A stretch of 64,000 nucleotides of DNA from a virus. The stretch covers positions 694 to 64,693 of IMG/VR virus record IMGVR_UViG_2878893965_000005, one strand, 5' to 3'. This document shows, in pieces, positions 24,744 through 26,548 of this stretch. Below the pieces are notes generated by a model that saw only the letters and a program-made list of their open reading frames with translations, searched no databases and was not told where the DNA came from. Position numbers and translations under genes: made by a program. How positions within the stretch are numbered: the first letter of the stretch is position 1; each line of letters opens with the position of its first letter.

Positions 24744-24781
24744 ACTTGCCATAAATAACCTGGTGATTGTAGGGTTTTGTT

Positions 24782-24879
24782 GTTGCGGTGAATCCCACTA
24801 GGCGTAGGGGTGTAGTTAGGTTTAGCTTCCACTACTGGCTATGCGGAGAAATCCACCGGGAGGCACCCGGCACCGCAAC
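24782..24879 (+). ncRNA. RNA scaffold copy 1
   Basis: GUUGCGGUG/CACCGCAAC stem, CCC/GGG hairpin, CCGGG-AGGCA-CCCGG hairpin; promoter TTGCCA-18-TAGGGT at 24746-24775. Confidence 0.7.
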
Positions 24880-24933
24880 TTTACAATCCAGTCAATCTTG
24901 AAATGTTTGTTTCGACGTCAGTACAGGAAGGCG

Positions 24934-25059
24934 ATGATGTTGAAAAAATGGTGTGTCAGGCTGCTTCTGCTCTCCAGTTTTTTTTGTGGTGTAGTCATAT
25001 ACTGCGTTGTTATCGAGCGTATAGAGCATGAGCTGATTTTTCTGGGGATAGATGATTAA
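24934..25059 (+). CDS. 41-aa single-TM peptide
   Basis: AGGAAGG RBS; MMLKKWCVRLLLLSSFFCGVVIYCVVIERIEHELIFLGIDD. Confidence 0.5.
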   Translation: MMLKKWCVRLLLLSSFFCGVVIYCVVIERIEHELIFLGIDD

Positions 25060-25104
25060 AAAATTTATTGCCAGACTTAATCTGCAAACAGTAGCTTTTC
25101 CGGT

Positions 25105-25223
25105 GTTGTGGTGAATCCAGCTATGCGCATGGGCGTACAGTCAAATTTCTCTGATGAGAAACGTAAACGAGACCGCGGACTTTGTGACTGGTAAGTCCAC
25201 CGGGAGGCACCCGGCACCGCAAC
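25105..25223 (+). ncRNA. RNA scaffold copy 2 (carries anti-IsrK 17-mer)
   Basis: Same stems; promoter TTGCCA-18-TAGCTT at 25068-25097; 25166-25182 is the reverse complement of 19993-20009. Confidence 0.75.
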
Positions 25224-25229
25224 GCTAAT

Positions 25230-25305
25230 CCGCCACTAGCTCAGCAGGATAGAGCAGCAGCCTTCTAAGCTGTTGGTGCGGGTTCGATTCCCGCTGACCG
25301 CTCCA
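25230..25305 (+). pseudogene. Chimeric tRNA-Arg(UCU)/Gly with unpaired acceptor stem
   Basis: D and anticodon arms with UCU are intact; 5' CCGCCAC cannot pair with 3' UGACCGC, which matches the tRNA-Gly 5' end at 25971. Confidence 0.7.
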
Positions 25306-25331
25306 GAACCAGAAATACGGGAATTAAGTAC

Positions 25332-25433
25332 TCAGAAAATAAACAGCCCGTTTATAGCCAGCATCCAGGCGAACCATATACCTCCCAAAACAATAGCCAC
25401 TAACCAGTAGAGTGCTTGTGCCAGTGCGTTCAT
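25332..25433 (-). CDS. 33-aa hydrophobic peptide
   Basis: AGGAGGT RBS; MNALAQALYWLVAIVLGGIWFAWMLAINGLFIF. Confidence 0.6.
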   Translation of the reverse strand: MNALAQALYWLVAIVLGGIWFAWMLAINGLFIF

Positions 25434-25660
25434 CCGGGGACCTCCTGACTGTAAAAAAGTCCCCGGCACCGGGCAGGTGACGGGGAAATGTATTGGAAGC
25501 AACGTTTTGAGTTATGACCCTCACAAGCAATCGCAACTTATGAAGATGTGAAAACGATAATCATTTGCATTAATGAGTGTCAACGGACTAAGAGTAGGGA
25601 TAATTCCACCCTTGCCGGGAGAGGTTGCAAAATACCACCAGCAAACAGTAGTTTTCAGGC

Positions 25661-25783
25661 GTTGCGGTGAATCCAGCTATGCGCATGGGCGGAAGTGGTT
25701 TCAGGATAGTTAATTATCAAGGTAGCGCGAGTCACGGTCGGCAGCCAGCCAACGACTCACCGGGAGGCACCCGGCACCGTAAC
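25661..25783 (+). ncRNA. RNA scaffold copy 3
   Basis: Same stems; promoter TTGCAA-18-TAGTTT at 25625-25654. Confidence 0.7.
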
Positions 25784-25789
25784 ACTATC

Positions 25790-25865
25790 GGCCCTTTAGC
25801 TCAGTGGTCAGAGCAGGCGGCTCATAACCGCTTTGTCGCTGGTTCAAACCCAGCAAGGGCCACCA
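25790..25865 (+). tRNA. tRNA-Ile2/Met (CAU), ileZ-like
   Basis: Complete 76-nt cloverleaf with CCA; resembles Stx-phage ileZ. Confidence 0.85.
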
Positions 25866-25970
25866 GGCAAGTGTAGACTACTGAATAAGTAGCCTACCGA
25901 CGCAATAGTCTTTCCACGCATGACTATAAATATCGTCGCGGTGACGGCAGGGAAAGACCTGCGTTCATAA

Positions 25971-26032
25971 GCGGTCATCGTATAATGGCTATTACCTCAG
26001 CCTTCCAAGCTGATGATGCGGGTTCGATTCCC
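25971..26032 (+). pseudogene. 3'-truncated tRNA-Gly(UCC)
   Basis: Intact to the T arm, then the acceptor 3' strand and CCA are missing. Confidence 0.75.
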
Positions 26033-26038
26033 AGACAT

Positions 26039-26114
26039 GCTGGTTTAGCTCCAACGGTAGAGCAGTCGCCTTGTAAGCGAATGGGTAGCGGTTCAGATCC
26101 GTTAACCAGCACCA
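26039..26114 (+). tRNA. tRNA-Thr(UGU)
   Basis: 76-nt cloverleaf with CCA; T loop UUCAGAU is non-canonical at position 58. Confidence 0.75.
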
Positions 26115-26372
26115 TATCCCCCTGTGTAGCTCCGCTGGTCACGCGGCGGCGGCCCATCGTTAAAGGGCAAATTTCAGGCAGAAAAAAACCGCCACAGGGA
26201 TGGCGGGCAGTAAATACTGAACTTGAAAAACAAGGGATACGTCAACACTTGGAGGTCTACACACTCAGCAGAACTGTGTAGCCATCAACACCTTGCCTGA
26301 TTTCTGTGTTTAAGTTAAACAGATAAATCCTAAACTAGTAAACCATGTAAATTATAATGTTATTGTAATGAT

Positions 26373-26501
26373 GTTGCGGTGAATCCCGTTAGCGCGGGGC
26401 AAACTGATCATCTGTGTGTATTGACAATAGTTGCAGCAGACATGAACACGGGTCATGGCAGATCAACCAAAGGCTCACCGGGTAGCGACCGGCACCGCGA
26501 C
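26373..26501 (+). ncRNA. RNA scaffold copy 4
   Basis: Same stems with variant CCGG-GUAGCGA-CCGG; extended -10 TGt-TATTGT at 26358-26366; terminator 20 nt downstream. Confidence 0.7.
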
Positions 26502-26521
26502 ACTACAATACCAGGGAAAAC

Positions 26522-26548
26522 AAAGGCTACTTCGGTAGCCTTTTTCTT
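26522..26548 (+). terminator. Intrinsic terminator
   Basis: AAAGGCTAC-TTCG-GTAGCCTTT plus U-tract. Confidence 0.8.

Follow-up and report, generated by a model that had tools for sequence, protein, structure and literature searches.

The viral genome record IMGVR_UViG_2878893965_000005 contains, at positions 694 to 64,693, a stretch of 64 kilobases (kb; hereafter, the window) that is a Rac/lambdoid-type prophage. It encodes a RecE-like exonuclease, a double helix-turn-helix repressor, YdaS/YdaT-like proteins, replication genes, and two Rha genes, followed in order by the antiterminator Q (PF06530), minus-strand cargo, an array of four structured RNA units, a holin, an endolysin, and Rz. The array, together with a fifth, early copy of the same RNA on the minus strand, is the subject of this report. 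An original prediction, made by a model from the sequence alone, described the units as promoter-driven RNA scaffolds with a conserved fold and a variable cargo. The unit cores were scored with the Rfam model RF02076 (STnc100; gathering score, 47 bits) and with R1, a flank-free core model built from 22 members, of which 17 came from other genomes. The units and the phage genes around them are as follows.

10653-10523, minus strand: early copy (u0), STnc100-type core (RF02076, 39.9 bits, E = 9.4e-6; R1, 74.7 bits)
21609-22004: Q antiterminator (PF06530)
24782-24879, plus strand: unit 1, STnc100-family core (RF02076, 50.7 bits; R1, 80.3 bits)
25105-25223, plus strand: unit 2, STnc100-family core (RF02076, 46.7 bits, E = 1.8e-7, 0.3 bits below the gathering score; R1, 90.2 bits)
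25661-25783, plus strand: unit 3, STnc100-family core (RF02076, 48.4 bits; R1, 89.3 bits; also its own fold)
26373-26501, plus strand: unit 4, STnc100-family core (RF02076, 89.6 bits across the full model)
27383-27721: holin (PF05106)
28340-28852: Rz

RF02076 matches all five units, with E values from 6.5e-18 to 9.4e-6, and three of them (units 1, 3, and 4) score above the gathering threshold. A search of the window with R1 recovered exactly five units, at 65.7 to 90.2 bits. The four units and the early copy stand where the original prediction had placed them, and its suggestion that single copies might be in Rfam was right. Two further copies lie on other contigs of the genome, bringing the total to seven, and members of the RNA family occur in 25 of the 151 genomes that were sampled from the same bacterial family. 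Moreover, unit 4 is orthologous to unit 3 of Fels-1, the copy adjoining the holin in the type locus in Salmonella LT2, with 84% identity that includes the promoter region and the terminator. Because of the RF02076 matches, the seven genome copies, the presence in 25/151 genomes, and the orthology of unit 4, the five units are assigned to the STnc100/PasD/EcOnc27 family, whose small RNAs (sRNAs) come from lambdoid prophages, as new members in a known arrangement.

The arrangement is known from Fels-1, which carries three units in the same place, between Q and the holin, and whose unit 2 is related to window unit 2. Arrays of two to four units are also frequent in viral contigs, which weakens the original impression that the array had not been described. 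In a sample of 120 viral-contig loci (cited below by L numbers), collected through the invariant 3' box of the RNA, 92 distinct occurrences comprised 76 singles, 11 pairs, three triples, and two quadruples, so that 16/92 are arrays. The array of the window is typical of the family and lies at the upper end of its size range. Close relatives of the whole array were absent from 60 related genomes and from 5,426 Escherichia coli genomes, in which the tRNA parts alone match.

The window units resemble the RNAs described by RF02076, which include EcOnc27/sRNA103 of E. coli O157 and the Fels-1 copies, in sequence, fold, position between Q and the lysis genes, and a putative promoter of their own. 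The likeness extends to the terminator (in unit 4), to the presence of several copies per genome, and to tandem copies such as those of Fels-1. Unlike the model, units 1 to 3 and the early copy lack the terminator module (model positions about 170 to 206), and units 2 and 3 are joined to tRNA or tRNA-like genes. The Rfam model itself omits one helix, P3a (see below), and gives terminator-less members too low a score.

Published work documents the expression of several family members. In strain EDL933, eleven STnc100 copies are transcribed, one of them confirmed by Northern blotting (PMC5331693). The copy after stx2B overlaps the Hfq-binding sRNA EcOnc27/sRNA103 (PMC12711010) and has also turned up in outer-membrane vesicles (PMC12370729), and RpoD binds at the promoters of STnc100 copies in LT2 (PMC10794520). 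PasD1 and PasD2 of enteropathogenic E. coli (EPEC) E2348/69 depend on Hfq for their stability and have targets found by RIL-seq (PMC8550237). PasD is reported to be a structural homologue of STnc100 that lies close to Q and the lysis genes, and the two are treated as a single lineage whose seeds differ (10.64898/2026.05.13.724894); PasD2 belongs to the most abundant CsrA-bound RNA pair in EPEC (10.64898/2026.08.12.744399). PasD1 and PasD2 thus share with STnc100 a published structural homology, a location near Q in lambdoid prophages, and Hfq-dependent stability; PasD copies are reported to be dispersed, whereas the window units are in tandem, and the likeness between the two is taken from the published description.

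The core folds as a five-helix junction with linkers of 0 to 3 nucleotides (nt), in the order P1, AAU, P2, G, P3a, C, P3b, A, P4, P1', with P1 bringing the 5' and 3' ends of the RNA together. RNAalifold recovered P1, P2, and P4, and the minimum-free-energy (MFE) fold of each window unit alone recovered P1, P3b, and P4, with P2 in addition for unit 1. Among 103 distinct rows aligned to R1, an alignment that was fitted to the model and favours the modelled pairs, 91.9% of the cells are paired, compared with 74.9% in shuffles and 36-47% with a slid partner, and double-sided changes occur in 24 of the 29 pairs, all seven P3b pairs among them. The pairing that had been described for P1, P2, and P4 is borne out by the consensus fold, the pair counts, and the single-sequence folds. 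The accompanying remark that the changes in P1 are G-U only is accurate inside the window; across the family, P1 has full compensatory changes.

The central arm is built differently from what had been proposed, namely, a variable hairpin followed by about 20 unpaired nt. Its 3' part is the hairpin P3b, which has seven pairs, stands before P4, and covaries throughout with up to six pair types; its position is kept, and its sequence is unrelated between members. The variable insert, in turn, is closed into an arm of its own by P3a, which came to light when mutual information exposed two unmodelled column pairs. Columns 41-100 hold CG in 76 rows, GC in 10, UA in 6, and UG in 5, and columns 42-99 hold GC in 49 rows, AU in 20, CG in 8, UA in 5, and GU in 4. 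Besides P3a, mutual information gave no outstanding unpaired column pair of the sort that a loop-loop tertiary contact would leave. Single units depart from the general plan in detail: P3b of unit 1 is a minimal GGA-GAAA-UCC hairpin, and unit 4 has a variant P2 loop and a variant P4. Joint variants of P2 and P4 also occur in dicB-type copies (see below), and these variants could reflect shared descent.

Sequence at the junction, in the P2 loop, and in P4 hardly varies across genera, for which pairing alone is an insufficient explanation. One answer would be that the scaffold is a protein sponge, in which invariant loops and junction titrate CsrA or Hfq, copy number raises the dose, and the variable arm is secondary. 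Conservation beyond the needs of pairing, the place of PasD2 in the most abundant CsrA-bound pair of EPEC (10.64898/2026.08.12.744399), and the multicopy, tandem habit of the family all agree with this idea. However, AGGCA, the sequence of the P4 loop, does not make a canonical GGA loop and is itself missing from unit 4, and the inserts are extremely diverse, which suggests that the cargo is under selection; we regard a sponge as quite improbable. We also considered and rejected a tRNA mimic. ARAGORN calls two true tRNAs only, and the Rfam tRNA model has no match on any unit at E ≤ 1; the resemblance of the units to tRNA is limited to the topology of a closed multihelix junction.

The contrast between scaffold and cargo can be expressed in numbers. 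When 121 full-length members were clustered at 80% identity, the inserts (22-53 nt long) formed 63 clusters and the P3b region formed 55, compared with 6 for the 5' scaffold, of whose 61 distinct sequences 54 fall in one cluster; the cluster count for the 3' scaffold is biased by the use of the 3' box in collecting the sample. None of the five window inserts recurs in the sample. A conserved chassis with a variable cargo is supported quantitatively, and it is close to the published view of the STnc100/PasD family as a chassis with exchangeable pairing sequences. The original prediction went further, to a modular chassis displaying exchangeable antisense guides; its chassis and cargo hold (63 versus 6 clusters), whereas within the window a guide fits unit 2 only.

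The boundaries of the units are marked by the following promoter and terminator elements.

24746-24775, plus strand: putative sigma-70 promoter of unit 1 (TTGCCA at 24746-24751, 18-nt spacer, TAGGGT at 24770-24775), from the sequence and an anchored upstream comparison
25068-25097, plus strand: putative promoter of unit 2 (TTGCCA, 18-nt spacer, TAGCTT)
25625-25654, plus strand: putative promoter of unit 3 (TTGCAA, 18-nt spacer, TAGTTT)
26361-26366, plus strand: likely -10 element of unit 4 (TATTGT; TATTAT in Fels-1), from the alignment with Fels-1 unit 3
26522-26548, plus strand: intrinsic terminator of unit 4 (terminator scan and Rfam alignment; conserved in Fels-1)

At units 1 to 3, the succession of TTGCCA or TTGCAA, an 18-nt spacer, and TAGNNT puts the predicted start on the first base of P1, and a comparable layout is found in many family members. 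The description of the units as promoter-driven is plausible for units 1 to 3, albeit with weak promoters; at the early copy, a promoter of its own is not evident. Across the family, an intrinsic terminator accompanies 66 of 109 distinct units, with the T-tract at a median of 39 nt downstream, and the remaining 43 have no terminator nearby. These terminator-less members (about 40%) act as 5' leaders, a role that the original prediction missed, as it did the tRNA genes that are interleaved with the array. The features that follow the units are listed below.

24934-25059, plus strand: hydrophobic open reading frame (ORF) of 41 amino acids with a Shine-Dalgarno sequence, directly 3' of unit 1
25231-25305, plus strand: tRNA-Arg(UCU)-derived sequence joined to unit 2 (Rfam tRNA, 48.6 bits, model positions 8-63 only)
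25332-25433, minus strand: hydrophobic ORF of 33 amino acids with a Shine-Dalgarno sequence, within the array
25790-25865, plus strand: intact tRNA with the anticodon CAU (ARAGORN; Rfam tRNA, 70.4 bits), starting 6 nt after P1 of unit 3
25971-26034, plus strand: fragment of a host-type tRNA-Gly(UCC) gene with its ends missing (Rfam tRNA, 26.2 bits, model positions 10-63)
26039-26114, plus strand: tRNA-Thr(UGU) (ARAGORN; Rfam tRNA, 57.5 bits)

The tRNA-Arg-derived tail of unit 2 has a disrupted acceptor stem and is not called by ARAGORN, and in its 3' half it shares 92% identity with host tRNA genes. Unit 2 of Fels-1 carries a more decayed version of this tail; since the two share it, the fusion was inherited. 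The CAU tRNA that adjoins unit 3 has a copy in a related E. coli prophage that is annotated as tRNA-Ile. Neither of the small ORFs of the array belongs to a family in NCBIfam or PHROGs.

The early copy provides another example of a unit followed directly by a gene. It belongs to the early-left operon, where a weak DicF-like match precedes it by 17 nt and an Ash/Rha ORF that contains isrK and C4 lies directly downstream. The spacer between dicF and dicB in Qin, a prophage of E. coli K-12 (L172:1953-2087; K-12 positions 1649452-1649586) holds an unannotated STnc100-type core (R1, 73.8 bits) in the same order of DicF, 17-nt gap, core, and ORF. This K-12 core is below the Rfam gathering score and has no RNA annotation, and the gene downstream of it is dicB, compared with an antirepressor-like Ash/Rha ORF for the early copy. 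An RNase III site has been mapped upstream of dicF in the dicF-dicB operon, for whose spacer no element has been described (10.1101/2023.04.14.536235). Because the early copy, the dicB spacer, and the tRNA fusions all present downstream features, the fold also serves as a 5' leader, and a role in cis stays in play.

Taken to its end, this line of evidence would make the fold mainly a cis-acting 5' leader module that stabilizes, insulates, or guides the processing of the RNA downstream, with the stand-alone sRNA as a by-product of early termination. Such a module would account for the 43/109 units that have no terminator nearby, for the tRNA that adjoins unit 3, and for the tRNA-derived sequence of unit 2 that is conserved in Fels-1. 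It would also account for members that run into a ribosome-binding site (RBS) and start codon (the early copy, L026/K-12 dicB, L004, L018, and L066) or into C4-like stems (L044, L057, and L078), and for the beginning of P1 at the predicted transcription start. However, the majority form has its own terminator, discrete Hfq-bound RNAs with targets in trans have been published (PMC8550237 and PMC5331693), just 1 of 110 units family-wide is fused directly to a called tRNA, and a pure stabilizer has no need of a hypervariable arm. That the cis role is the principal one seems rather doubtful to us, and the roles of cis leader and trans-acting sRNA are not mutually exclusive.

Some further observations concern these downstream regions. 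The tRNA-Gly fragment and tRNA-Thr (25971-26114) look like a captured piece of a host tRNA operon of the glyT-thrT type, and reads and contigs of other strains cover just 25971-26032 of the fragment before they run into unrelated flanks. Between the tRNA cluster and unit 4, a good minus-strand intrinsic terminator (26206-26189, in the region 26180-26310) has no ORF to terminate and no Rfam match, and it may mark a small RNA. Also, five loci of the sample (L046, L060, L062, L074, and L077) have in common a conserved element with CCTGGTAAATCGGTAGCTCGGAC about 90 nt 3' of terminator-less units.

The position of unit 4 raises a different possibility, namely, that this unit, and possibly others, is a phage late-promoter leader comparable to lambda 6S RNA or StxS, which would end at tR' until Q-modified polymerase reads through into the lysis genes. 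Both unit 4 and its Fels-1 orthologue directly precede the lysis cassette and have a promoter and a terminator that the two share, and phage 21 has the matching order of PR', a short terminated RNA, tRNAs, and lysis genes. A convincing promoter-terminator pair directly after Q was not found in the window; given this and its position, unit 4 could be the late leader of its own phage. The short PR'-tR' transcripts (lambda 6S RNA, StxS, and phage 21 aRNA) are like the array in being terminated RNAs between Q and the lysis genes, near phage tRNAs, and unlike it in having no similarity of sequence or fold and in being one RNA rather than four units. Moreover, the fold is missing from the PR' leader of phage 21 and from the quuD-essD interval of DLP12 even with search filters off, many family members are elsewhere (e.g., after stx2B or in the dicB leader), and neither a Q-binding element nor a pause signal was identified at the array. 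A late-leader function for unit 4 is thus a tentative possibility. As an obligatory part of Q-type late promoters, the fold was rejected on the phage 21 and DLP12 results.

A promoter-proximal, structured RNA in a lambdoid phage, often standing before terminators, also brings to mind the put-like processive antiterminators, which act on the transcribing polymerase. Family members, however, have been recovered experimentally as terminated RNAs (PMC5331693), and neither RF02076 (at E ≤ 5) nor the core model (filters off) matches anywhere in the whole genome of HK022, which carries putL and putR. We find a put-like function barely credible, and a family relationship with put-type antiterminators was rejected.

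If the inserts are pairing sequences, they should have partners, and for unit 2 there is a candidate within the same prophage.

19955-20039, plus strand: sRNA-Xcc1/C4-like antisense RNA (RF02221, 72.3 bits), upstream of rha2-DUF1367-ybcO-like-Q
25166-25182, plus strand: 17-nt segment of unit 2 perfectly complementary to 19993-20009 (blastn)

Searched against the whole genome with blastn, this 17-mer scores 34.2 bits, compared with a maximum of 32.2 for shuffled sequences, and it is the sole match of a variable region above the shuffled controls. Against the Xcc1-like RNA, unit 2 forms 17 base pairs, whereas 87 noncognate units reach at most 7. The 17-mer spans the 3' end of the insert, the 3' strand of P3a, the junction C, and the 5' strand of P3b, and in the MFE fold roughly its first 12 nt are left unpaired. 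The proposed partner has a loop, CUCGUUGA (20003-20010), whose complement, UCAACGAG (20060-20067), stands at the RBS of rha2, 9 nt before the ATG, and unit 2 carries the word AACGAG, as it occurs at the ribosome-binding region of rha2, extended to 17 nt. When duplex energies were computed for whole RNAs, pairing the units with C4, isrK, or the rha leader told us nothing; the one exception was unit 2 with the Xcc1-like RNA. Fels-1 has neither the 17-mer nor the rha module.

The known counterpart of the Xcc1-like RNA is C4 of the P1/P7 immI system, which is likewise a structured antisense RNA with a loop that pairs with the RBS of the next gene. In that system, extra copies of the target word elsewhere can compete, and unit 2 carries such a word. 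The site in unit 2 differs from those of P1 immI in that it would act in trans, 5 kb away, from inside an STnc100 scaffold and cotranscribed with a tRNA-like sequence; nothing like such a trans site has been described for P1, and a function for the site is putative. On this basis, unit 2 can be pictured as an anti-antisense decoy that would display a mimic of the rha2 RBS region, sequester the C4/Xcc1-like immunity RNA, and free the translation of rha2 and Q. Because unit 2 lies in the Q-dependent late region, the decoy would complete a circuit of positive feedback by which the phage is committed to lysis. We rate this full sequence of events as unlikely. The predicted pairing itself is a testable lead that is specific to unit 2 and not a family rule. 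A general rule that inserts target C4-type RNAs was not supported: among 92 units, antisense complementarity of more than 13 nt to the unit's own locus occurs in unit 2 only, and in tests of cognate against noncognate pairs, at the few loci that have both elements, unit 2 alone stands out. L098 is a marginal case, in which the insert pairs with the closing stem, rather than the loop, of its own C4-like RNA.

Several observations were made around these immunity RNAs. Words of the Xcc1-like RNA are also complementary to sites upstream of it (TCGAAAC at about 19854 and CTCAACG at about 19867) and over the rha2 RBS (TTCGAAA at about 20050, and UCAACGAG). The region 19850-20080 looks like a second C4-type switch. 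Its sites resemble a1/b1 and a2/b2 of P1 immI, and the operon ending in Q comes after it. The scaffold sequence CCCGGCACC, from the 3' box of units 1 to 3, also ends the Xcc1-like RNA, as CCUCCCGGCACCAC (20024-20034), and is the exact complement of GGUGCCGGG in isrK (10414-10423); this may be coincidence or a common processing or recognition signal. One viral contig has three tandem repeats of isrK plus C4 (L099:9712-11107). Elsewhere in the prophage, a match to the sok antitoxin RNA at 46544-46704 (RF01794, 91.3 bits) indicates a hok/sok-type module.

We propose, with a probability of about 0.6, that the units are best explained as STnc100/PasD/EcOnc27 sRNA genes in which a closed junction carries a unit-specific pairing cargo and which occur in several forms. 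Transcription of units 1 to 4 would start at the first base of P1 from each unit's own weak sigma-70 promoter. The compact scaffold would shield both ends from nucleases and offer docking sites for host RNA chaperones, namely, Hfq and, for PasD2, CsrA, while the insert and the P3b region would supply unit-specific bases that pair with other RNAs. Unit 4, ending at its own terminator, would be the classical stand-alone form. Units 2 and 3 would be made as leaders at the head of a tRNA or tRNA-like precursor, from which tRNA 5' processing would release them, unit 1 would lead into a small ORF, and the early copy would be a leader inside the early-left operon. The cargo of unit 2, through its 17-nt pairing with the C4-like RNA that masks the rha2 RBS upstream of Q, may act as a decoy for the immunity RNA.

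A number of results weigh against this proposal. The promoters of units 1 to 3 are not called by a consensus scan, and their -10 hexamers are poor. The terminator and poly-U 3' end that are typical of Hfq-dependent sRNAs occur in unit 4 only and are absent from units 1 to 3 and the early copy. In unit 2, the remainder of the 17-mer is buried in P3a and P3b, and the variable regions of units 1, 3, and 4 and of the early copy have no complementarity to the genome above shuffled controls, in a search that cannot detect short seeds. The near-invariance of P2, P4, and the junction exceeds the needs of a passive stabilizer. Finally, most of the stretch is present in four small RNA sequencing runs, but these assemble into contigs of 25-114 kb and so cannot prove transcription of the array; four raw-read runs are without the prophage. 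The shallowest run does contain a separate contig of 179 nt (26334-26512) whose depth is roughly fivefold that of its neighbours, and 26588-26795 is left uncovered, which fits unit 4 ending at its terminator and is only suggestive.

A striking array is thereby resolved as a known prophage sRNA family at its usual location, and the value of the analysis is chiefly clarification. Three points extend what had been described: the five-helix core, the role as a leader (including tRNA fusion and the dicB leader), and the predicted pairing of unit 2 with the C4-like RNA. Leader-type members, which precede tRNAs, C4-type RNAs, ORFs, and dicB, are missed by current annotation because the Rfam model includes the promoter and terminator flanks. 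The five-helix junction is far more elaborate than the usual Hfq-dependent sRNA, which suggests a further partner or tertiary structure. For unit 2, the predicted pairing offers a concrete RNA-RNA target within the phage's own lysis-lysogeny circuitry, in a branch of the family, STnc100, that is without an established target. In the broader form of the decoy reading, phages would use the five-helix core of STnc100 as a natural scaffold on which to display RNA decoys or guides directed against their own RNA switches or those of rival phages.

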